Shown here: piece by piece, positions 3,907 through 39,038 of the stretch
How positions within the stretch are numbered: the stretch's first letter is position 1
Layout: the number at the start of each line of letters is the position of its first letter
NCBI GenBank assembly: GCA_028277945.1
Contig: JANQFH010000008.1
Coordinates: forward strand, 195,442-259,441
From: Oligoflexia bacterium
Lineage (GTDB): Bacteria; Bdellovibrionota_G; JANQFH01
DNA: 64,000 bases
Direction of reading: 5' to 3'
Translations under genes and position numbers: made by a program
The notes under the pieces: model-generated
What the model was told of the DNA's origin: nothing
Databases searched by the model: none
The model's input: only the letters and a program-made list of their open reading frames with translations

Positions 3907-5727
3907 TCAAGTTTCTGTTATCGAAATCGGCACATAGCCAACGAGTTCTTTTGGGATGATGCCAACAGAGAGTTTGGCACATCGTTGCTGAAGAGGTTTT
4001 TCTTCATAACGATTGGTCACTAAGATACTCTTTTTGGCAATTCCGAGGCTTTCGATCAGGTCAAGACCGTTCTCTTGCTCTCCAGCAAGTTCATAGTCCA
4101 TGAGAAACAGCGACGACCCATTGTGTTCCAACTGTGAGCAGTCGACTTTAAAACTCTTGGCTGAGCGATAGTGCCGGATGTTCAAGTTCACTCCGTTCAA
4201 CTCCTGCTTAAAACGATAGTCCCATGTTTGGTGTACCGACTGGTCATCGTCAAGAACGATTGCATCCATCCCTTGACTCACCTGCAGGCTAGGTACGAAC
4301 CAGGAGGCCGGGGCGGTTCTCGGCAGCACAAGCGTCACGCAAGTACCCTGGCCAACCTCGGAGTCTATACTGAGATTGCCATTCCACGATTCAAGGGCCT
4401 TACGAGCCTGATAGAGACCAAGGCCCGAGCCTCCTTCTTTGTTATAGGTAAATCCGCGCTCACCGAGTTGGCTGAGCACATCTTTGGGAATGCCTTTACC
4501 ATTATCTCGAATAGTAATCCTGATCTTATCCTTGTCTGGAGGTTTATTATCGTTTTTACTAAGTCCAACTTCTATCAATCCTCCTTTGGGCATTGCCTCA
4601 ACGGCGTTGTTGACAAGGTTGGAGATGACTCGCTTAAAGGTCTTGGGGTCTATCTTGGAGAACAGTCCGTAACAGCTGGGTTCAAAGGTGTCCCGTATCT
4701 GCAAGTCTGTCCTCTCTTTAAACTGCATACGTTTTTCAGAGAGAACGCGACTGACAAGGCTGCTGAGTAGTACAGCCTCTCTTTGGCTGACCTCTGCTTT
4801 CTGGCTATCCATGGTGTCTTCTTTTCTTTTATTTAAATCATTGGCAACATCTCGAATTCTGTCGATAACACTGCGAATCAGCGTGCGTACCTGTTCAGGC
4901 AGATCAACGCAGATGTTGGTTACTGTGTCTAAGGCAGTCAAAGGAGATTGGATATCGTGTGCTACCTGTGTGGCGATCTCTCCCAAGGCCGCGTCCCGCT
5001 CCTTTTTCAAAAGCTCATGTTGCAGCTCGGTGATCTTTTCGCCTACCTCATTGATTGTCTTGTCTATCTCTTTTGATTCAGAGAAGAACAGTGGCGGCAC
5101 AGGTGGCGAGTCATGACGTCTGGCAAGGCCCTTGACGCGACTACGAATCGACAGGATTTCACTCCTAAAAATACGAAACTTTCTATGAGCAATGTAGGAG
5201 GATAGCAACAGTAGCACGGCAAGGGCGACTGTAGTGTAAAAAATAAACTTGTTTTGCAAAGAGCGTAGAAAACGGATGTCAGATACCAAAAATAGCCGCG
5301 CTTGAAGATGTTGTTTCCCGCCAACCATGGTGTGGAAGAAATCAGCCGTTTTATATATGAAGTCTTCGGAGTTTTGGTATTGATCTAGCCTGTTGCTTGA
5401 AAAGAAGCTGCATCCGGTATCGGTGCCGTTGCTGAATGCAAGGCACTGTTGCTCATTATCAAGCAAAAATGCCGCCTTGATATTGCTCAACCCTGAGAGC
5501 GTTTTGAAATACTCCTCTGCAGGCAGGTAGTCTGAATAACTCACCGATTTAGCGATAGCCCAGCGGGTCTGAGCAATAATGACGTCGAACTCCTTGAGGT
5601 AGTTGTCCTTTAGAATCTTCGGCACATAGTAAAAGGCAAGAAAGGCACCAAAGAGCAATAGCACAAGCTGACTACTTAAAATCCCAAGCAGGACTACCGT
5701 TGAAATCGATTGATGGTGCGGTTTCAT
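3907..5727 (-). CDS. hybrid sensor histidine kinase (two TM helices, periplasmic sensor domain, HisKA, HATPase_c, C-terminal receiver)
   Basis: 606-aa ORF; H-box VAHDIQSPLTAL, N-box NLVNNAVEA, G-boxes DNGKGIP and GSGLGL; C-terminal REC-like region (VLDDD ... LFLMDYEL ... ILVTNRY). Paralog of 22314..24110 and 35658..37493. Confidence 0.85.
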   Translation of the reverse strand: MKPHHQSISTVVLLGILSSQLVLLLFGAFLAFYYVPKILKDNYLKEFDVIIAQTRWAIAKSVSYSDYLPAEEYFKTLSGLSNIKAAFLLDNEQQCLAFSNGTDTGCSFFSSNRLDQYQNSEDFIYKTADFFHTMVGGKQHLQARLFLVSDIRFLRSLQNKFIFYTTVALAVLLLLSSYIAHRKFRIFRSEILSIRSRVKGLARRHDSPPVPPLFFSESKEIDKTINEVGEKITELQHELLKKERDAALGEIATQVAHDIQSPLTALDTVTNICVDLPEQVRTLIRSVIDRIRDVANDLNKRKEDTMDSQKAEVSQREAVLLSSLVSRVLSEKRMQFKERTDLQIRDTFEPSCYGLFSKIDPKTFKRVISNLVNNAVEAMPKGGLIEVGLSKNDNKPPDKDKIRITIRDNGKGIPKDVLSQLGERGFTYNKEGGSGLGLYQARKALESWNGNLSIDSEVGQGTCVTLVLPRTAPASWFVPSLQVSQGMDAIVLDDDQSVHQTWDYRFKQELNGVNLNIRHYRSAKSFKVDCSQLEHNGSSLFLMDYELAGEQENGLDLIESLGIAKKSILVTNRYEEKPLQQRCAKLSVGIIPKELVGYVPISITET

Positions 5728-5736: not shown

Positions 5737-6675
5737 TCAAGAGATAGGGTGAAGCGCTGCATGTCGTGGTTGGCAAGCATAGCCCAGGCCCTGGGCACGC
5801 TTTTTGTTAATTTGAATCTCGTTCTCGGAAAAGAAGAGCTCTTGTAAACCATTGGAGAACGCCTGGCAGACAACTACGGAAAAAAATGGCAAGAGCTTTT
5901 GTTTGGTAAAGACAAATTCAACATGGATACGGCTTTTTCGCAGGCTATTCTCCAGCTCTCTAAGCGAGTGGTTTGGAAGGCTGGATTCATCAAGTTTCTT
6001 AATGTCATAGTCGGCTGGCGAAAAAGGCGGTATTTCTGTACTGCATACGGTCGGCACGACAAAGGGGAGAATATGCCAGAGGTTGCCACGGATATCTGTG
6101 GGTGGAGGGACATTGCGTGAGTCATAGAGGAGCAGAGCCTCTTTTAGTGCTTTATCCTTGGCTCTGGCCAGATCAAACGCCGCACCAAAACCGTAGCAAC
6201 GTTGTTTCTCAGCAGAAGCAATCTCAGTCATGACCACATGAATGGGAAGATCATGGGTGAGATAGAAGAGGCGAACGTTTTTGTCTTGGTTATGATCGAT
6301 TTCCCATAATACTTTGTTATAGAAGACGGATAGCAGAGCTTGATCGCGCTCAGCCAGTTCGATTAGCGCTGCTTGTCTTGCCTCATTACGGTTGAAGTGG
6401 CAACTCAGGCCGTTGGTGGTTGGCTTGACAGGTTTTGCGTAATAGTGATGTCGCTCCACACACTCCATCAGTGCCGTCAGTTGTGCCTGATAGGGATCTA
6501 AGGCGACACCCACGCCAGCTACCCGATCGTCTCGTCCCTGGGCGTAGACACGGTGCCAGGTGAGGTTGTTAAAGCGAATCTCTTTGTGGGCGAGCGTTTT
6601 GACGATTCCCTGCTGCTGTTTAAGAGTACCCGCAATAACGAGGTTAAGTCGAGCTCTCTGCAGCAGTTGTCCCAT
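5737..6675 (-). CDS. short YcaO-like domain protein
   Basis: 312-aa ORF carrying both YcaO signature segments, ALMECVERH and NGLSCHFNRNEARQAALIELAERD (compare E. coli YcaO SALGEYFERLS and SNGMSAGNTRNEARVQGLSEVFERY, recalled from memory); sits between an SBP5 gene and a histidine kinase gene. Confidence 0.6.
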   Translation of the reverse strand: MGQLLQRARLNLVIAGTLKQQQGIVKTLAHKEIRFNNLTWHRVYAQGRDDRVAGVGVALDPYQAQLTALMECVERHHYYAKPVKPTTNGLSCHFNRNEARQAALIELAERDQALLSVFYNKVLWEIDHNQDKNVRLFYLTHDLPIHVVMTEIASAEKQRCYGFGAAFDLARAKDKALKEALLLYDSRNVPPPTDIRGNLWHILPFVVPTVCSTEIPPFSPADYDIKKLDESSLPNHSLRELENSLRKSRIHVEFVFTKQKLLPFFSVVVCQAFSNGLQELFFSENEIQINKKRAQGLGYACQPRHAALHPIS

Positions 6676-6688: not shown

Positions 6689-8248
6689 TCATGGAGTTGC
6701 CGGCAGAGCAGTTCTTGCCAGCCTCATATCCGCGAAATTGATGTTAAACTCCCACTCTGGCATGTGAGATAGATCGATTTTGGAGGAGGCATAAAAGGGT
6801 GTGGCCAGAAAATAGTAGGGAATAACAAAGCCCTCTTCTAGCATATAGCGGCTGATCTCTCTTGCCATTTGGATACGCTCTTTGGTGTTTCCTGTGGACC
6901 TGGTTGCTTCAATCATCTTATAGAGCCTGCCATCGTTAGGATCACGCACATAAAAGTCATCTGGACCAAAGTCTAGACGAAACACCAAACAAGGGTCTCC
7001 TGGTGGTATGGGTATAATACGGGACCCAAGATCAAAGCCTTGTCCCTGCAATCGGGCTTGTTTCATGGAACTACGAGATAGGGGGGTCATCTCAATTTGA
7101 AATCCATACGCTGAGAGATCATTGATTAATAATAGATCTCTCTTTGTTCTCTTATTCCAAACGTCTGGGTACATATATCTCAACGTCAAAGGCTCCTCTC
7201 TCAACCTGGCATAGATTGCTGTAAACTCTTTGGTCGCAGGTAGTGGGGCTTCAATGCGGCCACTAAAGCCGGGGGGAAAGAACTGATCAGAAGGAGCGTA
7301 AAGAAGTGAGTTACCGAATCTCTTGTGTTGGTGCTCTATGAGAGCTGCAGCAAAGGCAAGCCGTAGGGTTTTGTCCTTAAGGGGGCCTGTAATCGCATTG
7401 ACATAAACAATACGGCTCCAGTTACGTTTTGGTATAAACTGCTGAAAACGCTTTACCCTCTCTTGATCCTCTCGTTCTACTAGTCTATTGCGCTTATCTA
7501 AGAAGATGTCTGTTGTGCCTGCTAAAAGACGCTCCACAGCCTCCAAATCGTCACGCTCATAAACAATAACCGTCTGTGCTCTCTCGCCCCGTGGCTCAAA
7601 CCACTGCTCATGCCACTGCAACTTCACATAGTCCTTACGTTTCCACTCCACAAACTTGTAGGGTCCGCCTAACACAGGAAGCTTTTCTTTATGATAAGGC
7701 TCGTTCTCTGGATAGATCTTCCTCGGTACAACACCAGTACCTGGCATGGCTAGAATAAAGAGAAAGTACTCATAGGGGTTCGATAGGTTAAACTCCAAAG
7801 TGTGTTTGTCGATCATACGAATGGCTTTAGAATCTTTCTTTGGATCGACCCAATCAAAGAGCACGTACTCGGGCCAGTTAGTCTGTTTTCTCTTTAAGGA
7901 GAAGATAACATCTTCAACAGTGATAGGTGAGCCATCGTGAAAGAAGGCATCTTTTCTGATGGTGATCTCATAGCGTCTGCCACCATCATAAGAGCGCCAG
8001 CTCTGAGCTAACATGCCTATCAATGATTGGTCTTCGGCAATAGCAAAGAGGGTGATGGAGGTGCTGTTCAACATATACCAACCGCTGTTGGTCATATTTG
8101 CAGCTGGATCAAGAAAAGCTGGAAAATGATCCAGGTCCAACTTGATTGTGGAGCGGTCATCGCTTTGCAGCTGAGGCAGAGAACTGGCAAAACAGACAGC
8201 CGAAAGGAGTCCTAGGATGCCGACGGCTTTAAAAATCAATCTTTTCAA
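6689..8248 (-). CDS. family-5 extracellular solute-binding protein (peptide/nickel-type SBP), orphan
   Basis: 519-aa ORF with TTG start and N-terminal signal peptide; SBP_bac_5-like length and motifs; paralog of 24097..25611, 37483..39021 and 43334..44740; no ABC permease or ATPase gene nearby. Confidence 0.8.
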   Translation of the reverse strand: MKRLIFKAVGILGLLSAVCFASSLPQLQSDDRSTIKLDLDHFPAFLDPAANMTNSGWYMLNSTSITLFAIAEDQSLIGMLAQSWRSYDGGRRYEITIRKDAFFHDGSPITVEDVIFSLKRKQTNWPEYVLFDWVDPKKDSKAIRMIDKHTLEFNLSNPYEYFLFILAMPGTGVVPRKIYPENEPYHKEKLPVLGGPYKFVEWKRKDYVKLQWHEQWFEPRGERAQTVIVYERDDLEAVERLLAGTTDIFLDKRNRLVEREDQERVKRFQQFIPKRNWSRIVYVNAITGPLKDKTLRLAFAAALIEHQHKRFGNSLLYAPSDQFFPPGFSGRIEAPLPATKEFTAIYARLREEPLTLRYMYPDVWNKRTKRDLLLINDLSAYGFQIEMTPLSRSSMKQARLQGQGFDLGSRIIPIPPGDPCLVFRLDFGPDDFYVRDPNDGRLYKMIEATRSTGNTKERIQMAREISRYMLEEGFVIPYYFLATPFYASSKIDLSHMPEWEFNINFADMRLARTALPATP

Positions 8249-8458
8249 GTTGTGTACTTCTAACTTAGGTTTTAGTGTTCTCTCTAATAATATGAAGAAC
8301 TTCTGTCAACGGGTACTTTTCATCAGCAACTCAACCAACACAAATGTGTTTCATTTTTAGACAAGTTGTTTCGTAAGACGACACTTAAATGATGGTTCAA
8401 TCTAGCTTCGAGAGCTTGACCCTGTCTATAAAATAAGCAATCATCCTGGGTTAAGAGT

Positions 8459-8965
8459 ATGAGGCGATGGTTTTATGAGCTAACCATATTCGGAACCATC
8501 CTTACCAGTTTGAATGCCTATGCAGTGAGTGAGGAGTGTGCGGCCTTTTTCCAGAACAACAACATTTATCCTGGTGCCGATTGTGAATTGTCGTGTGCAA
8601 CTTTGCCGACATCAATGGCTACGTTTGGTTGTCCCGCTCAGTGTCGCGAATACTGTCGTTCCCGGACATTAGCGACAGAACCCTCCAAATCGAATGAGCC
8701 TTTAGATAGCTTGCCAATGGATGAAGAAGAGCGTCGGCAGCGCCTTAAGGAGTTTGCTATAGAAGAGTTCAAGAGTGAAAACCGATGCAACGCCTTGGCC
8801 AATATTGTCGATGAAGCCTCCAGGCTCATTGGGAGTGAGGAGAACCCCTCAAAGACCATGCTTGAGGATCTTAAAGAGGTGCTAATTGGAGAAGGGCTTC
8901 ATGAAGGTCGAGGGAAGGGGCCATATTTTGCTGGTAATGTCTATGGCGCTTTGGTGACGTCCTGA
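8459..8965 (+). CDS. secreted cysteine-rich protein of unknown function
   Basis: 168-aa ORF; signal-peptide-like N-terminus then 7 Cys within about 45 residues (CAAFF...CELSCATLP...CPAQCREYC), acidic C-terminal half. Confidence 0.4.
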   Translation: MRRWFYELTIFGTILTSLNAYAVSEECAAFFQNNNIYPGADCELSCATLPTSMATFGCPAQCREYCRSRTLATEPSKSNEPLDSLPMDEEERRQRLKEFAIEEFKSENRCNALANIVDEASRLIGSEENPSKTMLEDLKEVLIGEGLHEGRGKGPYFAGNVYGALVTS

Positions 8966-9716: not shown

Positions 9717-10907
9717 ATGTCTCATCCAAAACCAGAGTCTCCAGCGCTTATGGAGCCGATGCTTCCGGCTGCAGGACAATCCTCGCAACTCGAGGATCTT
9801 GCTGTTGATCTCATTGCCAAGGGCAGTAGCTTTCACAGCCTTTTGCCCACGAACCTACAGACAGGCATTGCGGATCTGGTGCGCTCGATGAACTGCTATT
9901 ACAGCAATCTCATCGAAGATCATCACACCCACCCCCGCGACATTGATCGCGCTCTAGCAGATGATTTCTCTACTGAACCAAAAAAGAGAGCCTTACAATT
10001 GGAAGCCAAAGCGCACATTGAAGTACAACGCCTCATGGATCATGGAGGCATCCCCGCCAATCCAACGACGTCTACATTTATTACCTGGATCCACCGGAAG
10101 TTTTGTGAGCGTTTGCCCGACAATCTTCTATGGACTGAAAACCCTGACAGTGGAGAACGTCTTCGCATCCACGCAGGCAAGCTCAGACAAACTAATGTCA
10201 TAGTTGGTCGCCACCTTGCGCCTGAGGCAAAAAATCTCCACGCTTTTCTGGCTCGCTTTCAAGAGGCCTATGATCTACAGCGCCTTTCCAAAGTGCAACA
10301 GATCCTCGCAGTCGCTGCGTCACATCATCGGTTACTGTGGATCCACCCTTTTCTCGACGGCAACGGTAGGGTGGCACGTCTCTTCTCGCATGCGCTCTTG
10401 TTGCATCTGGGTATTGGCAGTTCCCTTTGGTCAGTATCACGCGGTCTAGCCCGTAGCGTCGACGACTATAAAAGCATGCTCATGCAGGCAGATCAGCTGC
10501 GCCGCAATGACCATGATGGTCGTGGTACGCTCTCCCAACAAGGGCTGATGGATTTTTGTGGCTTTTTCTTGGCCACATGTCTTGATCAAATTGAGTTCAT
10601 GCGCTCTCTGTTAGAACCTAAAGAGCTTCTAAATCGTGTTGCTGTTTATACCGAAGAAGAGATGCGTGCCAAGAGACTTCCAAAAGGGAGTCTGGCGCTA
10701 TTGCGACATGCCATACTGGTTGGCGAGATTGCGCGCCATGAGCTCTCTGGCATTACGGGTTACAAAGAACGTCAGGCTCGTAATGTATTAAAAGAACTAT
10801 TAGCTAAAAAACTCCTTTACTCAGCAACTCCACGTGGCCGCGTGCGTCTGGGTTTTCCTATTGAGGTGGTAGAGCGCTGGTTCCCAACCCTCTACCCTGG
10901 AGTCTAA
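9717..10907 (+). CDS. fic: Fic family protein (probable AMP transferase) with C-terminal winged-helix-like region
   Basis: 396-aa ORF with canonical Fic motif HPFLDGNGRVARL; AT-rich promoter-like region upstream (9540..9716). Confidence 0.85.
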   Translation: MSHPKPESPALMEPMLPAAGQSSQLEDLAVDLIAKGSSFHSLLPTNLQTGIADLVRSMNCYYSNLIEDHHTHPRDIDRALADDFSTEPKKRALQLEAKAHIEVQRLMDHGGIPANPTTSTFITWIHRKFCERLPDNLLWTENPDSGERLRIHAGKLRQTNVIVGRHLAPEAKNLHAFLARFQEAYDLQRLSKVQQILAVAASHHRLLWIHPFLDGNGRVARLFSHALLLHLGIGSSLWSVSRGLARSVDDYKSMLMQADQLRRNDHDGRGTLSQQGLMDFCGFFLATCLDQIEFMRSLLEPKELLNRVAVYTEEEMRAKRLPKGSLALLRHAILVGEIARHELSGITGYKERQARNVLKELLAKKLLYSATPRGRVRLGFPIEVVERWFPTLYPGV

Positions 10908-11987: not shown

Positions 11988-12392
11988 GCTGGATAAAACG
12001 GGACTTTGATCTAGTCTGACCTAAGGTTTCTGGCCCCATACTTGGAAGAGCCACGGCACACTCATAAGAGTGCGGGTATCCTGAGACAAAGTCTTTAAGG
12101 TTGTAACGATTGCAAGGATACTTCTTCATCGTGATATTTGTCGAACTCAAGCAAAGCCCTGCCTTCGCCCTGTAATCAAAACAAGTTGGTCGTATAGTGA
12201 CCATTTTGTTTCCATAAAAGACAATCAGCATTCTATCCAACGTTAGGATCAAGACAAAGTTAATCACTCCACTCCCTTCGTGAAGGCTAACAACTGATTA
12301 CTCTTCGGCTAATAATGGTCTGGCTTTCTTGGCACACAATTTGCTTTTTTTTAAGCCAGCCACGTCACCTTCAATTTGTTATGGGAGGAACT

Positions 12393-12515
12393 ATGAAGGA
12401 CGCAAAAAAGACAAAACGTCAACAGTCTAAGTCGTCAAAAAAAATCTTTTCCCCTATTAAGGACAAGCTGTTAGATACAGCTATGTCGACTATCACATAT
12501 GATGTAACTGGCTAA
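12393..12515 (+). CDS. candidate precursor peptide (40 aa): MKDAKKTKRQQSKSSKKIFSPIKDKLLDTAMSTITYDVTG
   Basis: ATG preceded by GGGAGG at 4-nt spacing; lysine-rich N-terminal part and Ser/Thr-rich C-terminal part; 93 bp upstream of the HExxH and YcaO-like genes. Confidence 0.35.
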   Translation: MKDAKKTKRQQSKSSKKIFSPIKDKLLDTAMSTITYDVTG

Positions 12516-12608
12516 GTAGGCAACGAAAATAAGACAACGAAGCTAAGTATGGGAGTGGATGGTCTCTGCTCCCGTACCTTCAAGCCAGGCATATGAGAGA
12601 TCGATTTA

Positions 12609-13601
12609 ATGTGTTTAGAATATCATTCCGCCCCAGGAAAATTATCACCTTTTGTGCTTCGAAAAAATTTTCAAGGATATTTGGTTAAAAGCGCTATTTC
12701 CTACATTAATGAAGTTCAGTCGTCTTTAAAATTGGACCTCAACCACATAATATTAAAGTTATCCAGCCTAGATCAAAACCAGAAATTTTCCCCCTCTATC
12801 TATACAGGGTATCACATACTACAGTCAGCTTACGATAGTCAGAATAAAACCCTTGTGTTGGATGCCCTTCATTTCTTGGTTCAGTATTGCAATGATAAAG
12901 GTGGTAACAATAACATTGATTATTCAACTATACTTACAGAACCATATGAGAATCATTGTATAGACACTTTTCGAAAATCGAACCCTAAAGATGACTTCGG
13001 CGTGCCAGCTTTTGACGTTGTAGAAATGTTTCCAATACTGAATGTTAAAAAATATAAAATTCCTCCGTCTAGCCTTAAAAAGGCTGAAGAAATATTATCG
13101 CTGATTGATATGGATTTATGGAAAGAGTATCAAGCTTACGTTTCTATCTTAAAGATCTTCCAAGGAAAGAGTCTTCAAGGTGGAACAAGTCTCAACTGTT
13201 TTGGTACGGTATACCTGAGAATGCCTGAGGATTCCGAACATCCGGTACTCTACTTCCTGGAACATATTGTGCATGAAACCTCCCATTTGCATCTCTATGC
13301 ATTAGCCGGAGACAGAGACCTTGTTAGAAACGATTCAGCCTCTGTTTATGACTCGCCAATACGACACGACAAACGGCCCATTATTGGGGTATTTCACGCT
13401 ACGTTTGTTTTGGCTCGCTTAGTCCGTATATTTCAGCGCTACCTAAATCATTTTAGCAATGACTATCCAGAAGGAACTACCTTCTACAACAGAATAAGCA
13501 GAGACTTCAAAACCGGATACTCTATATTGAAAGAAAATTGTCTTTTTACAACGCTTGGGCGACAAATTTTTGATTCGTTAGATGATTGTACGAAAATTTG
13601 A
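12609..13601 (+). CDS. HExxH-motif protein (putative metal-dependent peptide-modifying enzyme)
   Basis: 330-aa ORF with HETSHLH motif and downstream RPIIGVFHATF segment; paralog of 26946..27779 (AHELGHH ... RPLFGIYHAAF); 3' end overlaps the next gene by 20 nt. Confidence 0.55.
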   Translation: MCLEYHSAPGKLSPFVLRKNFQGYLVKSAISYINEVQSSLKLDLNHIILKLSSLDQNQKFSPSIYTGYHILQSAYDSQNKTLVLDALHFLVQYCNDKGGNNNIDYSTILTEPYENHCIDTFRKSNPKDDFGVPAFDVVEMFPILNVKKYKIPPSSLKKAEEILSLIDMDLWKEYQAYVSILKIFQGKSLQGGTSLNCFGTVYLRMPEDSEHPVLYFLEHIVHETSHLHLYALAGDRDLVRNDSASVYDSPIRHDKRPIIGVFHATFVLARLVRIFQRYLNHFSNDYPEGTTFYNRISRDFKTGYSILKENCLFTTLGRQIFDSLDDCTKI

Positions 13602-14607
13602 AAGGAACGACCCTCTTGGAAATACCGCGTTTGGCAAACTACCTATCAAAAAACTGGTACGTGCTGCAGTCTTCCCTGATCGCTTTTTTGTAGGCAAAGC
13701 AGGTATCAAGCTTGTCAATTGGCAAGGAAATAATCAGTACCTTTGTGGCTTCTCATGCAGCAGACAACCGGCTATTGCCGAAAATGTAGCTGTTTTCGAA
13801 CTCTGTGAACGCTTGACAGCAAAGTATGAATTTCAATCTTTTCTGGGCACGAATATGAATACTTTCAGAGCGTTTACCTGGCCCGATGGGAATCCAGCTA
13901 GAGTGACAAAATCTCAATTATTCCTTGGTCCAAATCCATTTTCCCAATTTGGACAAGAGGCAACTGGCCTAGGTTTTGGCCCTGATTATCATCAAGCATT
14001 AAATCACGCTATTCTTGAATTGTTGGAGAGGCACATCTGCGCAGGTCTTTGGTATGAAGCAAAATATAGGCTATGCAAGGCAATCGACAGAGTATCTTTA
14101 GACTCCTTTGACATTTTCTACTATACCCTCCACAGACCGAAGATACCATTTGTTCTAGCCATTATATACTCGAATGAACTTGAGGTGCTTTCAGTCGGCC
14201 ATGCAATAAGATCTACGTTTGAGGAGGCGAAGGAAAAATCCTACTCCGAAGCAGTGATGCTGTTAGATTGTGTTCTCCACAAGGATAACGGTATCTGTAC
14301 CAATTTAAGAACTAAAAATCGTTTGCTTTCTCAAAGAGGTCCCTTAGCAAAAGAACGATTCCAACAATTTAACGATCTGACAGTAAACGTGGCAGCAGCA
14401 AAAAATATCCTAAGCCGATATTTTTCAATATCTGAGATTACTGCGGCGGTGCTTGGCACTAATGACGATATCGAAATTATTCAACTTTTCCGGGATAGAA
14501 ACTTCTGGTCTCTACGAGCACTTTCGAAGAAGGTGGCTACCTTGGCAGAACGTCGACAATCGAATCGATATTCAGAAAAACAAAAGATTCTGGACCCTTA
14601 TTGCTAA
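13582..14607 (+). CDS. short YcaO-like domain protein
   Basis: 341-aa ORF with YcaO signature segments VAVFELCERLTA and TGLGFGPDYHQALNHAILELLERH; overlaps the upstream HExxH gene. Confidence 0.6.
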   Translation: MIVRKFERNDPLGNTAFGKLPIKKLVRAAVFPDRFFVGKAGIKLVNWQGNNQYLCGFSCSRQPAIAENVAVFELCERLTAKYEFQSFLGTNMNTFRAFTWPDGNPARVTKSQLFLGPNPFSQFGQEATGLGFGPDYHQALNHAILELLERHICAGLWYEAKYRLCKAIDRVSLDSFDIFYYTLHRPKIPFVLAIIYSNELEVLSVGHAIRSTFEEAKEKSYSEAVMLLDCVLHKDNGICTNLRTKNRLLSQRGPLAKERFQQFNDLTVNVAAAKNILSRYFSISEITAAVLGTNDDIEIIQLFRDRNFWSLRALSKKVATLAERRQSNRYSEKQKILDPYC

Positions 14608-14619
14608 GATCAGCATACA

Positions 14620-15888
14620 TTAGAGCTTGTCGGAAATAAGGCTATATCTTTTGGCCGTGCTCCACAACAACAGTGTTGAAGCAAGCCCCACAATGCCAGA
14701 AAGACCAATTAACTTGCCTATGGCTGGATCGGCTTTCATAAGTACAGTGAAGATTACCATGGACAGTATATACCCGACTCTGCCATAAGCCTGTCCTTTC
14801 GATATTGAGTAGGTAAACCGATCTTGGCTAAATTGTGACTGAATCTTGTTTGAAAACATTATAAGGGAAACACCGTACAGGATACCGATAATGATCATTA
14901 GGGCAATAAAGGAGTCTCGAGAAGTTCCTCCAGCAAGAATTAGTGTTAGACTTAGAGCTACAAGAAGAAGAATCAATTTATGAATACTACGGAAGTACAC
15001 TTGAAATGCATTTGGGAAGAGAGTAATTGCGGTTAATGCTAGGAGGAATCCAAAGTAGATAGACGATGGACCTGAAAGTATTCGTGTAATTCCAGAAAGA
15101 TGTTTTGATGCTGCTAGCGATTGCATAAGAATAAAGGCAACCGCTCCAAAAGCTAAATTTGTCAAAAATAGAAACTGATTGTTCCATTTTAGCCAATGGT
15201 CGTCTTTTAAATCTATGATACGTTGATTTGCATTGTTCTGAAAAACATCAACCGATACTTGTTGCATACTGGTTATCTTTTTCATAAAGGATAGTAAAAG
15301 GAAGAGTCCAAGTAGAGAAATAAGGTAGGTTATGGAGTTTACGATGCAGACGACAGACCATCCACTAGTTAGCAGCAACGCTGCGACTGAAGCACTTACC
15401 ATGTTTACTCCACGATTTGCAGCATTCGAGAACGCTAAAGCTCTAGGTAGAGGGAAAAAATTATTCCTATCCAGGAAGATAGGAATAATGGTGGTCAGTT
15501 GTCTTGTTATAAGTGATAATGTACGCATTACTATCATCAGAGCGAGAAATAAGCCGTAAAATAGGTGCCTTGGAAGATATGATATTAAGATAGGCAGAAT
15601 GGTCAGTCCCATTAGGATAAATTCGATACATAGGGCGTAAAAAATTCTATCCTTGATATTTATAATGCGATCAATGTATTTTCCAAGAAAGGGTGCTAAA
15701 CCAATTTGCAGTATGGCATCTGTAGAGAACAGAATCCCCGATAACAATATTCCCGAACTATCGTCAAGAAAGAGTGCAACTGCGAAGAAAAGTAAAAGGC
15801 TATCCCCAAGTTTGGAAATAATCGATAAAGAAAGATACCCCCAAATAGGCGCCTTTGTCATGTTGTGGATTGGCTTTTCTCTATCCAT
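14620..15888 (-). CDS. MFS-type transporter
   Basis: 422-aa polytopic membrane protein (about 12 predicted helices), MFS-like loop motif GKYIDRIINIKDR; AT-rich. Confidence 0.7.
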   Translation of the reverse strand: MDREKPIHNMTKAPIWGYLSLSIISKLGDSLLLFFAVALFLDDSSGILLSGILFSTDAILQIGLAPFLGKYIDRIINIKDRIFYALCIEFILMGLTILPILISYLPRHLFYGLFLALMIVMRTLSLITRQLTTIIPIFLDRNNFFPLPRALAFSNAANRGVNMVSASVAALLLTSGWSVVCIVNSITYLISLLGLFLLLSFMKKITSMQQVSVDVFQNNANQRIIDLKDDHWLKWNNQFLFLTNLAFGAVAFILMQSLAASKHLSGITRILSGPSSIYFGFLLALTAITLFPNAFQVYFRSIHKLILLLVALSLTLILAGGTSRDSFIALMIIIGILYGVSLIMFSNKIQSQFSQDRFTYSISKGQAYGRVGYILSMVIFTVLMKADPAIGKLIGLSGIVGLASTLLLWSTAKRYSLISDKL

Positions 15889-15905
15889 ATACTATCATCA
15901 ACAAG

Positions 15906-16033
15906 GCAAGAATTAGGCCAATAGGAATGTCCGGTATTCCAATGGGTTGTAGATAGGTAACGCTTAGGAACAGTATGTCTGATATAGGACGCTCTGTTCA
16001 CCCTGAAGACAGTTTGTTTGTATTGCGAACAAT
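15906..16033. repeat. conserved ~128-bp operon-leader element, copy 1 (pairs with 28018..28145)
   Basis: About 80 percent nucleotide identity to 28018..28145 by eye; internal dyad symmetry (ACAG..GTCTGATATAGGAC..CTGT) and ACAGTTTGTTTG core; lies 17 bp upstream of the MFS start at 15888. Confidence 0.6.
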
Positions 16034-18395: not shown

Positions 18396-19142
18396 CTACT
18401 CTCCAAAACCCTTCACAAAAAACTTCTCATCGATCAACCGCAGACCCTCATAGACCTCATACTTGATCAAGGCACCCTTGGTATCGCGGTAGAGCCCTTT
18501 GCGCACTTGTCTTGGTTTTTTGTAAAGGCCCTCAACCTTGCTCAAAAAGGCTGCCAGTTCCTCTCTACTAAAAGGGCCATGCCGTTCCCAATCGAGCCAA
18601 TCAGGGCCAATGGAGACCACCACCGATAGCTCACGGCTGCCAGGTTTTACTCCACCAAAGAGCTTCTTTGCCATCCTCTGACTGCCAAGCGTCAGGAGGT
18701 GCCAGTTGCGGCTTTCAAAATGCTCTCGCTTGTTCTGCTGATCCATAAACATAAAATAGACGCCTTCGCTCCAGGAGCTACGATCCAGATTGACGCCTTT
18801 TTTGAAGCGCTCTAAAAATGTTTTTAAATCGGCAGGTTGATCATGCCAATGCCGTATGATCCTTTTGATAAAAGACCAGGTTGAGATGACAGACATGCCC
18901 TCCTCATCTTGCGACTGATCCAGAGAGTCGAGTTTTTCTAATTCATAACCTCTAAACAGTTCCGAACCTGTATCAGGCTCTGTTACCAGCAGCAGAGCAC
19001 CATCTTTAAGTTCCACAGTATCTCCAAACTCTATAGGTCTTTCGATATCCTCAGGAACTCCAGGGATATCAATCACTGTATCTCCCTGCTGTGCAAAGGG
19101 AGAGTCTGGATGGGGGGGTCGTTTTTCTCTCTCACGCATCAC
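18396..19142 (-). CDS. hypothetical protein, possible immunity/partner protein for the upstream RES-domain protein
   Basis: 248-aa ORF whose start overlaps the stop of 19139..20923 by 4 nt; no signal peptide; acidic. Confidence 0.4.
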   Translation of the reverse strand: MMREREKRPPHPDSPFAQQGDTVIDIPGVPEDIERPIEFGDTVELKDGALLLVTEPDTGSELFRGYELEKLDSLDQSQDEEGMSVISTWSFIKRIIRHWHDQPADLKTFLERFKKGVNLDRSSWSEGVYFMFMDQQNKREHFESRNWHLLTLGSQRMAKKLFGGVKPGSRELSVVVSIGPDWLDWERHGPFSREELAAFLSKVEGLYKKPRQVRKGLYRDTKGALIKYEVYEGLRLIDEKFFVKGFGE

Positions 19143-20923
19143 TCTAGGGCCTCAAAAAGAACGACGTTAAAGCCATCTGGATTTCTTGCCGAGGGTACGA
19201 CAATACCACGATAGTGCAGCCGCGCCAATTCTCCTATTATTTGTGTTATTGAGTAATCCTCAGAGATCAAAGCTTCAGGAGCTATATTTAATAGCTCCCT
19301 GACACTTGGTTCATTAAGATCGAGCATGTTGTCGAGTGTGACATAGCGGCTTCTTGTTTCAATCACCCCCTTGACACCATGGGCTCGCATTTCCGCGGCG
19401 ATGGTCTGCCGATCGCCGCTCATGTAAAGCGCGCTTCTTCCCGGCGCTGAATAGCGATGGTTGGCGGCAATATTACCCTGCGGTATTTTCCACGAACCTG
19501 CTCGGTAAACATCACCTCTGTATTTACTTCCCTTGACAACACCTTGAACCAGCTTTTTGGTGGTATCAGGCCCCAAAGCTTGGCTCGCCCTTATCACCGC
19601 AGGCAGATGCTGCTGATCAAAGAGCTTTCTTGCCAAGCCACCACCACCGCGCCCTAGCAAACTGGTGGTCCCTCGGACCATGACCGTGCCTGACAGGACC
19701 ATAGGCACCATCATGGAGACAACTGTCTCTAAAGCCATCTCAAGCGGCAAGCTCGCCTCGACAACTCCAGTTGACGAATCCTCTTGTAGTGCCCACAAAT
19801 GGTAGTCTGCTGCCGCCATTTTGAGTGCTCCTGACAAGAACTCGCCGTCTCGGATATCTTGCACTCCCTCAATCATTAAATAGGCGGCATCTATAAGATG
19901 TGGCAGATCTGGCAGGGTTAAGGCATGATCGAGGGTAATCTCCACATGTTGCCAGATGTGTTGGGAGAGCCTCTCACCTAGATCGCGCTCTAACAGCGCC
20001 AACTCATCGAAGGTCTCAACACGGATGCGCGCCATGGAGCTGTCTGCTTCCAAATGGAGTCGACCTTTGGCCGTTGATTGAGCGCGTTCTGCTCGGTCAA
20101 TGAGTTCGTCTAATGTCTCCTGTATCCAGCGATGTCGTATGAGATCTCGCATGCTGCGAAGCTCGTGAACCCGCCGTGAGAATGCCGCGTAGCCATAGGC
20201 AACCACCTCCTTACTTGAAGCCCGTTCCACAGCCGCCAGGGCAACATCGGTGGAGGTGGCCGTGAGCCCCAGAAATAGTGGCAATCCATGTCTGTTTTCA
20301 GGAAGTGGCAACTGAGCTTGCTGTTGAAGTTGCACAAAAAGAGAGGAGTTGTGGATCATGTCACTAGCGGAACTGTGAGAAGCGAGATCGGAACCACCCC
20401 TTTCGTGGAGGGTGCGAATGTCGAGGCCGCTTGCAGATGATTCATCTCGAAGCTGATCATCTTGAGCTTGCTCTGCAGAGAGGCTTAGATGTTTGTTACT
20501 CTCTGCAACTGCAGTGTTGGCTTGAAGTAGGCTGAGGCCACGTTGCAACCCTGTAAGGTACTGAACTCTACGCCGAGCTTCCACATCACTGTGAGTCGGT
20601 GCTGAGCCTTCTTCATCCTCATCATCAAATCCACCGATCTCTCCTCTCGGGCTATCAAAGAAAGGGTCAAATCCTTCATCTTCTGTTTTGTCTTTGGGTT
20701 TTTGAGAGGAAACGATAACAATAGGCGTGTCAAAAACAATATGGACGTTGCCATCGGAGTCAACGGTCACATTTCCTGGCTCTGTGGTGTAGTCGTGCTC
20801 TCTTTCCTGAGCTGATTCAGTTTGTCCTGCATCATCTTGTGCAACAAGCTCTCTCTGCAACGGCGAAAAAAGACAAATCGTCGCGATCAATAAATAAAGC
20901 AGGCTTTTACATGAAATTTTCAT
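19139..20923 (-). CDS. secreted protein with C-terminal RES-domain (NAD-targeting toxin-like) module
   Basis: 594-aa ORF; signal peptide; C-terminal region with RES-domain signatures YRAGSW ... RYSAPGRSALYMSGDRQTIAAE ... VVPSARNPDGFNVVLFE. Confidence 0.6.
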   Translation of the reverse strand: MKISCKSLLYLLIATICLFSPLQRELVAQDDAGQTESAQEREHDYTTEPGNVTVDSDGNVHIVFDTPIVIVSSQKPKDKTEDEGFDPFFDSPRGEIGGFDDEDEEGSAPTHSDVEARRRVQYLTGLQRGLSLLQANTAVAESNKHLSLSAEQAQDDQLRDESSASGLDIRTLHERGGSDLASHSSASDMIHNSSLFVQLQQQAQLPLPENRHGLPLFLGLTATSTDVALAAVERASSKEVVAYGYAAFSRRVHELRSMRDLIRHRWIQETLDELIDRAERAQSTAKGRLHLEADSSMARIRVETFDELALLERDLGERLSQHIWQHVEITLDHALTLPDLPHLIDAAYLMIEGVQDIRDGEFLSGALKMAAADYHLWALQEDSSTGVVEASLPLEMALETVVSMMVPMVLSGTVMVRGTTSLLGRGGGGLARKLFDQQHLPAVIRASQALGPDTTKKLVQGVVKGSKYRGDVYRAGSWKIPQGNIAANHRYSAPGRSALYMSGDRQTIAAEMRAHGVKGVIETRSRYVTLDNMLDLNEPSVRELLNIAPEALISEDYSITQIIGELARLHYRGIVVPSARNPDGFNVVLFEALE

Positions 20924-22077
20924 TTTGCCAGGCTCAGAATCAACTGTAATAGAAATGTGCCGTCCCCCTCCAAGGCTTTGGCGATCTCCAACAAGAGTTC
21001 AAGCTCTTTTGCCTTTTCAGTATCTCCTTGCGCCTTCAAAGCGCTGATTCTTTTCTCAGCCTCTGCAACTGGATTGAATCCCTTGACAATACCGGCAATT
21101 CTCTCGATATCCTCTTGACTATGAGCAACAAGTACTTCCAGGTCTCCTTTCAGCTCAGCATCGCTCAACTGTGGTAACACCTCCTCCCGGATCATGTGCG
21201 TTGCTGTAGACCACGTGAAAATGGCTTCTAATGCGGCAAAGAAATCTCGATTGACCAAAACCTCTTTTTGAACCTCAAGCTTCAACGAGGAGAAGAGATC
21301 GGAAATGTCGAAAAGAAAATCAATCCGTTGAAAATCAGCAAAGTATTGTTCCTTGAGCTCCTTATAAATCGCCGCTGACAGTTCAGCGGGTGCAGCGGCA
21401 AGATAGGAGGCAAGCTGATTGTCACTGCGATCGAGTTTTCGCAGCAGAACATCAACCGCCTGTACGAGCCTATCCCCAGTCTCCAAAGCTTCTTTAAAAC
21501 CAATAATGACCTTGCGGTCCTCTTCTCGAATCCGCCGTTCCACTTCCCGAAATCCTTCTAAGTAGAGAGGATCTAATCGGTTACCAGGCGGAGGTATCCG
21601 TTCATCGATGTCTTCTCGGGTTAGCTCTGGAATAACCGCTGATAGACCGGAAGTCGCCGACAGGGCGACCTGTCGAGAGCCTGCAAGCAGGTTTCTCGCT
21701 GCATCAATGTGCGAGCGGACTTGAAAGGCGAGCGACACAGCCTGACGTATCTCTTCTCTAGAGGATGCTGTTTTAACGGCGTTGACTTTGGCAAAGGGAG
21801 CCTCCAACCCTTCTTTGGTACGGCGAAATTCGTTAAGGGCAGCCGTTAGTCGACGCGTTGACCTCGAGGCCCTTGCATAAAGACCCCGATAGTGCTTATG
21901 CGCTGCGGTGCGTCCCTCACTCTTAACGGTAGCGCTCCTGGTCTGCTCGTATTTAAGCTGGAGACGCCGCAGCTCACCTTCCAGTTCCTCTACCGACTGC
22001 GCAAAGGCAGGTGAAAGAACAAAAAGCGAGATCAGCAACGATTTTAAGACCGACATGGGTAAGTATTTAAAGCACAT
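20920..22077 (-). CDS. secreted coiled-coil hypothetical protein
   Basis: 385-aa ORF with signal peptide (LISLFVLSPAFAQS); overlaps the downstream gene start by 4 nt; similar N-terminal organisation to 54768..55964. Confidence 0.4.
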   Translation of the reverse strand: MCFKYLPMSVLKSLLISLFVLSPAFAQSVEELEGELRRLQLKYEQTRSATVKSEGRTAAHKHYRGLYARASRSTRRLTAALNEFRRTKEGLEAPFAKVNAVKTASSREEIRQAVSLAFQVRSHIDAARNLLAGSRQVALSATSGLSAVIPELTREDIDERIPPPGNRLDPLYLEGFREVERRIREEDRKVIIGFKEALETGDRLVQAVDVLLRKLDRSDNQLASYLAAAPAELSAAIYKELKEQYFADFQRIDFLFDISDLFSSLKLEVQKEVLVNRDFFAALEAIFTWSTATHMIREEVLPQLSDAELKGDLEVLVAHSQEDIERIAGIVKGFNPVAEAEKRISALKAQGDTEKAKELELLLEIAKALEGDGTFLLQLILSLAK

Positions 22078-22313: not shown

Positions 22314-24110
22314 CTAACTCTGAGGCCGCAGGCCAATTGGAACGAGGCTAGCGAGACTTTTAGGAATACATTTCACACCAAGTCGAGCACAATTCATGAG
22401 GACAACCTCCTCTTCAAAATGGCTTGTCACAAGTATAGCCTGATCTTGAAGGTTGAGCTCTTCAATGAGATCGAGCCCGGTTTCCTTAAAGTTGAGAAGT
22501 TCATAGTCACACAGAAATAAAGCATTGTGTGTATCATTCTTCTCAACCCATGTTCTTATGGCGTCGGGTGTAGACAGATTGTCAAGTTTGATCCTATTTC
22601 CTCCTCCGTTGCGTAATGCATGAAATCGCTCTCGCCAAATCTGATGAATCGTAGGATCGTCGTCCAAGGTTACAATGCGGGAGTCTGGCGCAACTTCAAG
22701 TCTGGGTACAAACCAAGACGGAGGACTTTCTTTGGGTAAAAGCAGAGATATCTGAGTACCTTGTCCTTCCGTACTCTCAATTTTAAGCTCACCTCCCCAG
22801 CTTTCAGCGGCCACTTTTGCATGATAGACTCCAAGACCTAGACCACTATCCGTTCCCCCCTTTCCATAGGTCACTCCCTTTTGGCCCAGTTTTCCGAGAA
22901 TGTCCGGTGGTATTCCTGTCCCGTCGTCTTTTACATAGAGACACAATGTTGAATTATTATGTTGGAACAGGCCAATTTCGATGACACCCTCATCGGTCAT
23001 TGCTTCAACAGAGTTATTTACAAGATTTGAAATTACACGCTTAAGCTCAACAGCACTGACTTTGGCAAACAGTCCGTAGGATTTTTCATCCAATTTGGCC
23101 TCAATTCGGATTCCTGTTTTAGTTCGGAATTGACCCCGTTTTTCGCTGACGATACTTTCTATAATACTTGATATCAACCAAGTCCTTCTCATGGCTTGAT
23201 TGGGCCTCTCGTCATGTTGAGCCTGATGTATATTTCTGCCCAGCAAGTTGTTGGCGATATCTTTAATACGTTGGGACGCATTACGTATAAGAACGCGTTT
23301 CTCTTCCGGAATGTCTACAAGAGTGCCAGCCAAAAGATCCAATGCTGCTACAGGAGCTCGTATATCATGCGCGATTTGTTGAGCCACTTGGTAAACAGCT
23401 TCCGCCTTTTTTGTTTCGATCCTATATTGATTTGACTGAAGAGTTTGTTGCGCAAGTTTCCTAATGGAAGAGGTGAGAATAACAACTTCGGACAGATCAC
23501 CCTTGATATTTGGCTGATCAAGGAGTGAAAGATCTTCTAAGTTGCCACTTTCAGCTGTTTGACTAAGCGTGTGTAGCGGTGCTGAGATCCGATGTGCCAC
23601 TCTTTTTAGCATAAGGAAAGCTATAGCAGCGATAGTCATTAAGACAAATAGAGATACTCCCATAATCCGGTAGTATAGACCACGAATGATTCCGGTATTA
23701 AACCTCATACTAACCATAGCCGCTGGTTGTGTCTTTTCGTCGTCAAAATATACAGTGCGTTCAACGACAAATTTACTCGTCCTCGACACTTCTGCAGTTT
23801 CTGGTAAACTCTCGTAAATAACTTCTCCTCTTATGTTCGAAATAATAATGTTATCTATGGCCTCTTTTTTTATCAAGAGATTGCACTTTTCACGGATGCT
23901 GAGGTGAGAGCCGGTAAGAATTTCGTAGCGAATATTCTCGGAAAAGAGTTCTAAAATCATCTCATGTTTTGACGCAACTAAGTTATCGAAACTCTTGTTA
24001 ACCGCAAATAGAATTAGGATTCCCACAAGAATTAAACCCAATGATACTGTTATTGAAAAAGTTCTGAGTAAACTGGTGAATACAGTATGTTGACGTTTAG
24101 GCATTTCCAC
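22314..24110 (-). CDS. hybrid sensor histidine kinase with C-terminal receiver domain
   Basis: 598-aa ORF; two TM helices flanking a periplasmic domain, H-box IAHDIRAPVAAL, HATPase_c motifs (NLVNNSVEAM, DDGTGIP, GLGLGVY), REC-like C-terminus (TLDDD ... LFLCDYEL). Confidence 0.85.
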   Translation of the reverse strand: MEMPKRQHTVFTSLLRTFSITVSLGLILVGILILFAVNKSFDNLVASKHEMILELFSENIRYEILTGSHLSIREKCNLLIKKEAIDNIIISNIRGEVIYESLPETAEVSRTSKFVVERTVYFDDEKTQPAAMVSMRFNTGIIRGLYYRIMGVSLFVLMTIAAIAFLMLKRVAHRISAPLHTLSQTAESGNLEDLSLLDQPNIKGDLSEVVILTSSIRKLAQQTLQSNQYRIETKKAEAVYQVAQQIAHDIRAPVAALDLLAGTLVDIPEEKRVLIRNASQRIKDIANNLLGRNIHQAQHDERPNQAMRRTWLISSIIESIVSEKRGQFRTKTGIRIEAKLDEKSYGLFAKVSAVELKRVISNLVNNSVEAMTDEGVIEIGLFQHNNSTLCLYVKDDGTGIPPDILGKLGQKGVTYGKGGTDSGLGLGVYHAKVAAESWGGELKIESTEGQGTQISLLLPKESPPSWFVPRLEVAPDSRIVTLDDDPTIHQIWRERFHALRNGGGNRIKLDNLSTPDAIRTWVEKNDTHNALFLCDYELLNFKETGLDLIEELNLQDQAILVTSHFEEEVVLMNCARLGVKCIPKSLASLVPIGLRPQS

Positions 24111-25611: not shown

Positions 25612-25616
25612 TTGTG

Positions 25617-26933: not shown

Positions 26934-26945
26934 TATGATCTCTAT

Positions 26946-27779
26946 TTACACTTCTATTCTCTCTCTGACACCTAGCATAAACAACTTAATGTCCTTATCG
27001 AATTCCAGAAGACCAGATTTTGTAATAGTAGTAAGATCCTTTATATACTTGTTCTTATAACAATCTAAAATACGACTGGAACTCTGCTTGATTAACTCTT
27101 CTATCGAGTGATTCGAATGTATCCGCAAACCAAGTTCCAGCATGGCCGCCTCAGCAAAGGCTGCATGATAGATACCGAACAGTGGCCTTTTCATGTTTCT
27201 CAAAGCTGATCGGTCTTCTTTTGCCCATGGATAGCGATTCACTGTGGCTTCACTTTTTGTTGCAAAGACAATAGTAAGGTAGTGATGGCCCAACTCGTGA
27301 GCTAGAATTTCTGCCCACTTCACAGGGTCATCACTATTCATTACATATTCAATAAGTCCAAAGACTTGGGGATCAGAGGCTGATTCGTGTTCAACACCTT
27401 GCCTGGGAAAACACATTCTTGGTTTGATAATTTGCTCAAATGCAAATAGTTTCTTCCATACTACTCCGATAATTGTTCTTGCTGCAGAGTATAGTGCTTC
27501 TTTTTCTGGATAGCGTTGCAGTGAAGAATCAAAAATAATGTTACTGCCAACTACGAACTTGCTACGTGCGATATCACGAGTTATTAGATTGCTAACTTGG
27601 TCAGTTGACAGACTAAACTTATCACGATTGAAATAGATCCAAGAGAGAGTTGATAAGCTCAATTCTCTATTAATGTCTATATTGCGGAATGCTGGTATGA
27701 GCTTAAGAGCTTGCATTCCCTGCTGTCTAAATTGACTAACGTATTTTTTTGTCAGATCAATTGAGAATATAGAAGGCAT
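26946..27779 (-). CDS. HExxH-motif protein (paralog of 12609..13601)
   Basis: 277-aa ORF with AHELGHH and RPLFGIYHAAF segments; first long gene after the candidate precursor ORF. Confidence 0.55.
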   Translation of the reverse strand: MPSIFSIDLTKKYVSQFRQQGMQALKLIPAFRNIDINRELSLSTLSWIYFNRDKFSLSTDQVSNLITRDIARSKFVVGSNIIFDSSLQRYPEKEALYSAARTIIGVVWKKLFAFEQIIKPRMCFPRQGVEHESASDPQVFGLIEYVMNSDDPVKWAEILAHELGHHYLTIVFATKSEATVNRYPWAKEDRSALRNMKRPLFGIYHAAFAEAAMLELGLRIHSNHSIEELIKQSSSRILDCYKNKYIKDLTTITKSGLLEFDKDIKLFMLGVRERIEV

Positions 27780-39021: not shown

Positions 39022-39038
39022 CAAAATGTGAATGAGTT

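Follow-up and report, generated by a model that had tools for sequence, protein, structure and literature searches.

Introduction

Two enzyme superfamilies that act on peptides that are synthesized ribosomally and modified post-translationally (RiPPs), the HExxH oxygenases and the YcaO proteins, meet at the locus described in this study. The HExxH oxygenases, which depend on Fe and α-ketoglutarate (αKG), were defined as a family in 2024. The azoline-forming YcaO proteins have as their hallmarks an E1-like/Ocin-ThiF partner with a RiPP recognition element (RRE), a flavin mononucleotide (FMN) dehydrogenase and a proline-rich PxPxP C-terminus. The locus lies in a 64,000-nt stretch of the genome of an Oligoflexia bacterium (GenBank assembly GCA_028277945.1, contig JANQFH010000008.1, positions 195,442 to 259,441 of the forward strand), which in its full length is called the window below. 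It contains two overlapping open reading frames (ORFs), ORF A for a predicted αKG-HExxH-type peptide hydroxylase and ORF B for a compact YcaO-domain protein. The two superfamilies are already known, as are RiPP cassettes with this kind of layout; what appears to be new is a compact DPFC-tailed YcaO clade, its invariable linkage to an αKG-HExxH gene in place of the classical partners, and an associated precursor family.

Members of the αKG-HExxH family β-hydroxylate His, Asp, Phe, Gln and Pro residues of RiPP precursors, and oxidative backbone cleavage has also been reported for two of them (PMC12636437, PMC13060819); papers of 2025-26 state that the reactions "at present cannot be predicted". 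YcaO proteins make azolines, amidines or thioamides, or cleave peptides (PMC13063428, PMC10885120). In the cytochrome P450-then-cyclodehydratase route to phenyloxazole, a β-hydroxy residue made by the oxygenase is closed onto the backbone (PMC11575548). On the E. coli ribosomal protein uL16, RoxA, an Fe- and 2-oxoglutarate (2OG)-dependent enzyme, β-hydroxylates Arg81 and the TfuA-independent EcYcaO thioamidates the adjacent Met82, and the two marks are epistatic (PMC13063428).

The overlapping gene pair and its conservation

The coordinates of the pair in the window are as follows.

12609..13601, + strand: ORF A, predicted αKG-HExxH-type peptide hydroxylase, 330 aa
13582..14607, + strand: ORF B, compact YcaO-domain protein, 341 aa
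13582..13601, + strand: overlap of ORF A and ORF B, 20 nt, different frames

The junction reads ...gttagATGattgtacgaaaatttTGA, and the final 20 nt of ORF A are the opening 20 nt of ORF B. ATG 13582 is the sole ATG, GTG or TTG codon in the ORF B frame upstream of a conserved N-terminal LPIK(K) segment; because no other start is usable, the overlap is real and does not result from a mis-called start. The coordinates and the reading of the junction thus confirm the 20-nt overlap of a HExxH gene and a YcaO-like gene that a first-pass annotation of this DNA had reported. No Shine-Dalgarno-like sequence was seen before ATG 13582.

Homologous loci were drawn from contig look-ups, a genome scan and a metagenome scan, and the six-frame ORFs of each locus were searched with hidden Markov models of both families. 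Eleven distinct loci with a YcaO of the ORF B family (E < 1e-49) were seen in context (the window, L001, L002, L003, L008 (=L012), L011, L013, L014, L015, L018 and L019), compared with about 204 clusters in the family. The YcaO proteins at these loci are 24-44% identical to ORF B, and one of them (L008) comes from a Chlamydiae metagenome-assembled genome (MAG). At all 11 loci an HExxH homologue lies directly upstream on the same strand, and the same order at every locus excludes a chance adjacency of the two genes. Measured from the HExxH stop, the most plausible start of the YcaO gene ranges over the loci from 28 nt inside to 11 nt beyond, showing that a tight or overlapping junction is a trait of the family. 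These conserved junctions support the coupled expression suggested in the first-pass annotation, and we infer translational coupling of the two genes. That annotation had also made a joint role of the two proteins depend on the co-occurrence of their families elsewhere, which is what the 11 loci display.

The linkage is asymmetric, in that the YcaO family is always found with an HExxH gene, while the HExxH gene also occurs alone. Related HExxH genes without a YcaO are present in L005, in degraded form in L006, and as a second copy in the window (26946-27779). In L022, the gene that comes after a related HExxH gene encodes a TupA-like ATP-grasp protein instead of a YcaO, so that a hydroxylase is again paired with an enzyme that depends on ATP. 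The cassette as a whole is rare and patchily distributed. The first-pass annotation had known of no described HExxH plus YcaO pairing, and our literature search agrees with it, giving no description of an αKG-HExxH and YcaO pair, although the supplements of the founding αKG-HExxH paper or of the main YcaO review could list YcaO neighbours.

ORF A resembles αKG-HExxH peptide hydroxylases

ORF A carries the motif H222-E-T-S-H226 and, downstream of it, R256-P257-x-x-G260-x-x-H263-A264. No Pfam match was found for the protein, and the NCBIfam model TIGR04267 ("aKG-HExxH-type peptide beta-hydroxylase") matches residues 206-322 with 66.4 bits (cutoff 40, E 3.1e-18). The relatives of ORF A (alignments A2 and A6) all keep residues H222, E223, H226, R256, P257, G260, H263 and A264. 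A profile of ORF A and these relatives matches the ChlH crystal structure 8s5f (E 8e-9) with the HExxH and RPxxGxxHA motifs aligned, so that the motif residues of ORF A line up with HEHRH…RPPSGLLHA of ChlH. The predicted structure agrees with this. The AlphaFold2 model of ORF A (pLDDT, its predicted local confidence, 74) aligns with the chains of 8s5f in Foldseek with E 3.5e-8 and template-modelling (TM) scores of 0.59-0.65, the alignment spanning the whole length (about 350-368 columns), and the second-ranked match is SjiH (22ob). The AlphaFold2 models of this analysis are of medium confidence and were built from shallow alignments.

Because of the TIGR04267 match, the conserved motifs and the ChlH-like predicted fold, ORF A is assigned to the Fe/αKG-dependent HExxH oxygenase family as a stand-alone member. 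No extra RRE-like or leader-binding domain was found in ORF A, whose model is a single ChlH-like domain. A protease-type zincin was also considered for ORF A and was rejected on the TIGR04267 score, the RPxxGxxHA motif and the ChlH (8s5f) fold.

ORF B represents a compact YcaO clade

The Pfam YcaO family PF02624 matches ORF B with 37.2 bits (gathering threshold 25.7) at profile positions 111-240 only, and no PDB sequence match was found for the protein even at E 1. A complete YcaO fold is nevertheless predicted by its model, in which each of two ExxER motifs lies on a helix after a β-sheet unit. The motifs are E73-x-x-E76-R77 and E146-x-x-E149-R150, they are followed by K219 and E223, and the protein ends in ...ILDPYC. 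The same order of motifs is found in E. coli YcaO, where E75/E78/R79, E199/E202/R203 and R286/E290, all present in its sequence, are the residues that we take to bind ATP and Mg2+. The mapping of the ORF B residues onto those of E. coli YcaO is likely, not proven, because two registers compete in hhalign (51% and 20% probability).

A HMMER search of 1.84 billion cluster representatives gave 204 relatives of ORF B at E <= 1e-3. The best 150 of the 204 are 122-359 aa long (median 323 aa), and none of these 150 is fused to another domain. In 61 members, down to about 22% identity, G56, E73, E76, G129, E146, E149, W157, G206 and E223 are invariant and R77, R150, D338 and P339 are nearly so; K219 is invariant in a 12-sequence alignment of the closest members. 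Both ExxER motifs are present in 122 of 153 representatives. The family ends in D-P-[F/Y/I/V]-C, with DPFC in 65 of the 153 representatives and DPYC in ORF B (window 14593-14604), and judged from the alignments this conserved end stands in place of the PxPxP tail of azoline-forming YcaO proteins. Proteins closely homologous to ORF B are very rare, numbering four in an index of 5.8 billion; a further protein search with the profile of the 61 members gave at least seven proteins. A genome-contig scan with alignment A1 gave no match, and one with alignment A5 gave a single genuine locus of the family (L008) together with unrelated YcaO proteins at L009 and L010. By its sequence features, the ORF B family is a distinct compact YcaO clade.

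The usual accessories of a YcaO protein are missing from its surroundings. ORF B scores 19.9 bits against the SagD-type model TIGR03604, far below the cutoff of 219, and no gene for an E1-like, ThiF-like, RRE or dehydrogenase protein was found in the homologous cassettes inspected or, in the window, at a distance of up to about 5 kb. Likewise, no tfuA gene was found in the window cassette or in the homologous loci. Because TfuA-independent thioamidation exists (PMC13063428), thioamide chemistry is compatible with a cassette that lacks tfuA.

A candidate precursor gene and a stem-loop precede ORF A

Two further elements lie directly upstream of ORF A.

12393..12515, + strand: candidate precursor peptide gene, 40 aa, MKDAKKTKRQQSKSSKKIFSPIKDKLLDTAMSTITYDVTG; GGGAGGA 5 nt before ATG 12393
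12547..12577, + strand: stem-loop of 13 bp between the precursor ORF and the hydroxylase gene

The candidate precursor reads MKDAKK…LLDTAMSTITYDVTG and combines a leader motif K-I-F-S-P-I...LL with the core DTAMSTITYDVTG. A start at ATG 12315, which would give 66 aa, was rejected, since it lacks the Shine-Dalgarno sequence that ATG 12393 has and since the homologues match the 40-aa form alone in length. Short ORFs of 22-43 aa, mostly with a Shine-Dalgarno sequence, precede the hydroxylase gene in nine loci (the window, L001, L002, L008, L011, L013, L015, L018 and, with uncertainty, L014). One Phe is invariant in their alignment, as part of a φ-x-F-[E/D/S/A]-x-φ motif; in most of the peptides …LL comes next, and then a short C-terminal stretch of variable sequence. 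The peptides of the window, L001 and L002 have the core ...TAMSTIT[YW] in common. The small ORFs encode …FAEIKEEVLATAMSTITWSIMPEPSK in L001 and L002, …VFEDVSEELLLMSTTMQED in L018, …KFEAITNITLEETMATEQRSVSPYEE in L011, …TFEVIENDLLILNKPTVQLYGN and …TFDVIESELLAINRPTVQVYGS in L008 and L013, and …SFESFNNQEFTSEDHPLNGLMMEED in L015. As read from these alignments, the small ORFs have the classic leader-plus-core layout of RiPP precursors, and the gene-level features by which a RiPP cluster is generally recognized (a short precursor gene, a conserved leader, a variable core and adjoining modifying enzymes) are found here. As a separate observation, the more distant αKG-HExxH genes P0009 and P0008 (L022 981-3018; L007 7736-8939) are preceded by Lys/Gly-rich small ORFs, such as MAKTKIDSAKTFGTAADGRKIGSEKAGATKKTKK.

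The hairpin in the window (12547-12577) is not significant on its own when folded (z -1.6). All seven loci folded have a stem-loop after the small ORF, however, and the six besides the window have z values of -2.4 to -5.2, several with T-runs. RiPP operons in which the precursor is over-produced typically have hairpins of this sort, and a role as an attenuator or a transcript stabiliser is possible.

Transporter and genomic setting

A transporter gene lies downstream of ORF B in the opposite orientation.

14620..15888, - strand: MFS-like transporter, 422 aa, weak MFS_1 match

The MFS-like protein is 32% identical (E 8e-53) to the transporter encoded after the YcaO gene, on the same strand, in L001. 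In both L001 and L002, the product of the gene after the YcaO has no significant Pfam match and is homologous to the window protein. The YcaO gene is followed by an MFS gene in L018 and by MatE-like genes in L008 and L013. In L011, a gene for a TldD/PmbA-family metallopeptidase (7199-8683) directly follows the pair and a MatE gene lies further downstream; proteases of the TldD/PmbA family remove the leader of microcin B17 (PMC10885120). The genes for an F-box protein and a transposase lie upstream of the pair in this locus. By homology, the MFS-like gene of the window belongs to the cassette and is inverted relative to all homologous cassettes, and its product is probably an exporter. The unit is therefore larger than the two genes noted in the first-pass annotation, since the precursor ORF, the stem-loop and the transporter also belong to it; that annotation had likewise placed neither the HExxH protein in the αKG-dependent hydroxylase family nor the YcaO in a separate compact clade.

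The cassette lies in a trough of guanine-plus-cytosine (GC) content (12000-16000), with about 0.40 compared to 0.535 just upstream and 0.45-0.50 downstream. Together with the inverted transporter, this trough suggests horizontal acquisition followed by local rearrangement. Transposase genes flank the cassette in L011 and L013, suggesting mobility. A PADLOC scan gave no defence-system match for the cassette, and Rfam and tRNA scans of the 64-kb window gave no match.

Proposed pathway and rival explanations

The family memberships, folds, catalytic-type motifs, gene order, junction, precursor-like ORFs with hairpins and transporter described above lead us to propose, as the fairly probable reading of the locus, a four-gene RiPP-type cassette (precursor, αKG-HExxH hydroxylase, compact YcaO and exporter) whose product is a modified peptide and whose YcaO relies on the hydroxylase. 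The proposal extends to the catalytic activities, the order of the reactions, this dependence, any physical complex and the product. The 40-aa precursor (12393-12515) would be recognised through its conserved φ-x-F-E-x-φ…LL leader. With Fe(II), αKG and O2, the αKG-HExxH enzyme would then oxidise a residue in the short core at the C-terminus (DTAMSTITYDVTG), most likely by β-hydroxylation, and the compact YcaO would use ATP to phosphorylate or otherwise activate a backbone amide in the same core. This activation could yield an oxazoline-type heterocycle, a thioamide or an amidine, or could end in a cleavage, and the product would be exported by the MFS-like protein. The dependence of the YcaO is deduced from three facts: it is never found without the hydroxylase, the hydroxylase occurs alone, and the YcaO has no known accessory protein. 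As an obligate partner, it may receive its leader-bound substrate from the hydroxylase within a complex, or it may receive the hydroxylated residue. The latter logic, known from the P450/cyclodehydratase route, would be one plausible explanation for the obligate pairing of the two enzymes.

Four reactions may be envisaged for the YcaO. It could cyclodehydrate Ser or Thr in M-S-T-I-T, it could cyclodehydrate through the newly installed β-hydroxyl, or it could form a thioamide beside the β-hydroxy residue, as on E. coli uL16. It could also cleave the peptide with ATP, as MusD does (PMC10885120), an option that is attractive because most of the cassettes have no protease.

Two other readings keep the cassette and differ in how its enzymes relate. 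The two enzymes may work independently, the YcaO as a stand-alone Ser/Thr cyclodehydratase on M-S-T-I-T and the hydroxylase on another residue, with the overlap reflecting only a compact operon. The Ser/Thr-bearing cores fit such a division of labour, which we consider unlikely: given that HExxH genes occur without a YcaO, it leaves the adjacency at 11 of 11 loci and the fixed order and junction, kept over YcaO identities of about 22-44%, unexplained, and the YcaO has neither a leader-binding partner or RRE, nor a PxPxP tail, nor a dehydrogenase, and falls far below the TIGR03604 cutoff. At the other extreme, and doubtful in our judgement, the pair may be an obligate two-component maturase of a new RiPP class. 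In it, the hydroxylase would dock the leader in place of an E1-like/RRE protein and install a β-hydroxyl, and the YcaO would use that hydroxyl as a nucleophile, giving an oxazoline at a non-Ser/Thr residue, or would use its C-terminal Cys in a new amide-activation chemistry. If so, the ATP-grasp partner in L022 would, by analogy, follow the same logic of making a hydroxyl and then condensing it with ATP.

Other readings assign one of the two proteins, or the pair, to a different task. We hold it to be very unlikely that the HExxH protein works mainly by hydrolytic or oxidative peptide cleavage, taking the leader off a peptide modified by the YcaO or shortening that peptide at its C-terminus. 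The cassette has no other protease, the fold derives from zincins and PflC provides a precedent; the TIGR04267 membership, RPxxGxxHA motif and ChlH fold nevertheless point away from it, all characterised members are Fe/αKG oxygenases with hydroxylation as the primary reaction, and the cores here lack an ARMD-like cleavage motif. A YcaO-like protein that serves as a non-catalytic scaffold or substrate-binding subunit, leaving all chemistry to the hydroxylase, would accord with the partial Pfam match (111-240), the lack of a PDB sequence match, the short protein and its unusual C-terminus. Such a role is improbable, however, since both ExxER motifs, K219 and E223 are kept, as expected of a retained ATP/Mg2+ site, a complete YcaO fold is predicted, and related HExxH enzymes work without such a subunit (L005; PMC12636437). 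Finally, a hydroxylase and a TfuA-independent YcaO that act on neighbouring residues of a protein have a precedent in RoxA/YcaO on uL16 (PMC13063428), and the pair may likewise modify a cellular protein, with the small ORFs being fortuitous. This is highly improbable given the conservation of the small ORFs with a leader motif, Shine-Dalgarno sequence and hairpin, the dedicated transporter, the low-GC island, the transposases in L011 and L013, and the rare, patchy distribution.

Further loci in the window

A second RiPP-like cassette, without a YcaO, occupies window positions 22314-27922 on the - strand.

27818-27922, - strand: 34-aa ORF, MAKSNESKKTVSFNFSFQSHRVLGAKLASIPTGS, with a φ-x-F-x-φ-like motif
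26946-27779, - strand: second αKG-HExxH gene, TIGR04267 43.6 bits (cutoff 40)
25617-26933, - strand: MFS gene
24097-25701, - strand: SBP_bac_5 protein
22314-24110, - strand: hybrid histidine kinase

A second, different compact YcaO-like gene is flanked by an SBP_bac_5 gene and a hybrid histidine kinase gene.

5737-6675, - strand: compact YcaO-like protein, 312 aa, Pfam YcaO 58 bits, two ExxER motifs, C-terminus …HPIS
6689-8248, - strand: SBP_bac_5 gene
3907-5727, - strand: hybrid histidine kinase

YcaO-like genes whose products end in HPI[MYS], namely those of L020, of L009 (an Oligoflexus MAG) and at 5737-6675 of the window, adjoin histidine kinases. In L010 (Archangium), the gene right after the unrelated YcaO reads as TfuA-like by eye only.

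A third cluster, built on the same pattern, is found at 35658-40130.

39039-40130, - strand: 363-aa protein with a DUF4135/LanM-dehydratase-like segment
37483-39042, - strand: SBP_bac_5 gene
35658-37532, - strand: hybrid histidine kinase

The three kinases of the window are paralogues, about 31% identical, and the SBP_bac_5 proteins are about 21-23% identical. The combination of a peptide-modifying enzyme, a peptide-binding protein and a sensor kinase, found three times in 40 kb, hints at signalling by modified peptides as far as the predicted domains can indicate.

Toxin-like modules are present around the cassette (9717-10907, 19139-22077 and 50651-51907): a Fic-domain protein, a RES-domain protein and a HipA kinase. 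The RES domain is C-terminal in a 594-aa protein whose gene overlaps an upstream gene for a 385-aa protein without a family. At 488-2617 (- strand), 28476-29189 and 29208-31196, the window encodes the selenocysteine elongation factor SelB, a CHASE2-adenylate/guanylate cyclase and a type IV pilin-like N-terminus (…FSLTEVMISVSIVGIL…), the last being read by eye only.

Significance

New peptide chemistry is actively being sought in both enzyme superfamilies, and the clade described here is a YcaO group always seen with an αKG-HExxH neighbour, without the classical accessories, with a conserved C-terminal Cys and in a four-gene cassette. One peptide and two enzymes make a compact, testable system for substrate recognition by an RRE-free YcaO, and the same system is suited to asking whether oxidative and ATP-dependent backbone chemistry are coupled. 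The cassette would also add a RiPP family that apparently comes from poorly studied bacteria, one of the loci being in a Chlamydiae MAG. No new principle of biology is involved, and if the chemistry amounts to one hydroxylation and a Thr cyclisation, the cassette would be one more RiPP variant.

Comparison with known systems

Compared with the αKG-HExxH family (TIGR04267/IPR026337: ChlBH/ChlH, BpmH, PflC/PosC and PesO), ORF A passes the family model and keeps the motifs and the predicted fold, and its sequence identity to ChlH is only about 15%. As in the stand-alone characterised members, a short precursor gene adjoins the enzyme gene (PMC12636437, PMC13060819). The characterised members differ in their partners, which are radical SAM domains joined to them as fusions or separate MNIO, nitroreductase, GNAT or Asn-synthetase-like enzymes; in the literature searched, none of them has a YcaO partner, unlike ORF A.

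The ORF B family is much shorter, at about 320 aa, than the classical YcaO proteins (McbD/LynD, the M. kandleri and M. jannaschii YcaO proteins and E. coli YcaO). Whereas classical members have a PxPxP tail, ORF B ends in D-P-F/Y-C, and instead of an E1-like/Ocin-ThiF/RRE partner, an FMN dehydrogenase or TfuA, its constant neighbour is an αKG-HExxH oxygenase.

Two systems come closest in combining hydroxylation with YcaO-type or cyclodehydratase chemistry. The curacozole, YM-216391 and mechercharmycin pathways share the logic of a β-hydroxylase followed by a cyclodehydratase (PMC11575548). Their hydroxylase is a P450, the activity of which was not reconstituted, and their biosynthetic gene clusters are large, cyanobactin-like and equipped with E1-like and dehydrogenase components. 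The likeness covers the logic only, and the use of the installed hydroxyl by the YcaO of the window cassette is hypothetical. The RoxA/EcYcaO system has unlinked genes and acts on a ribosomal protein that is folded; its RoxA is a JmjC cupin and not an HExxH enzyme, and its EcYcaO is 586 aa long. What this system shares with the predicted pathway is a 2OG-dependent β-hydroxylase and a YcaO that acts without TfuA, which in E. coli modify adjacent residues of one substrate.

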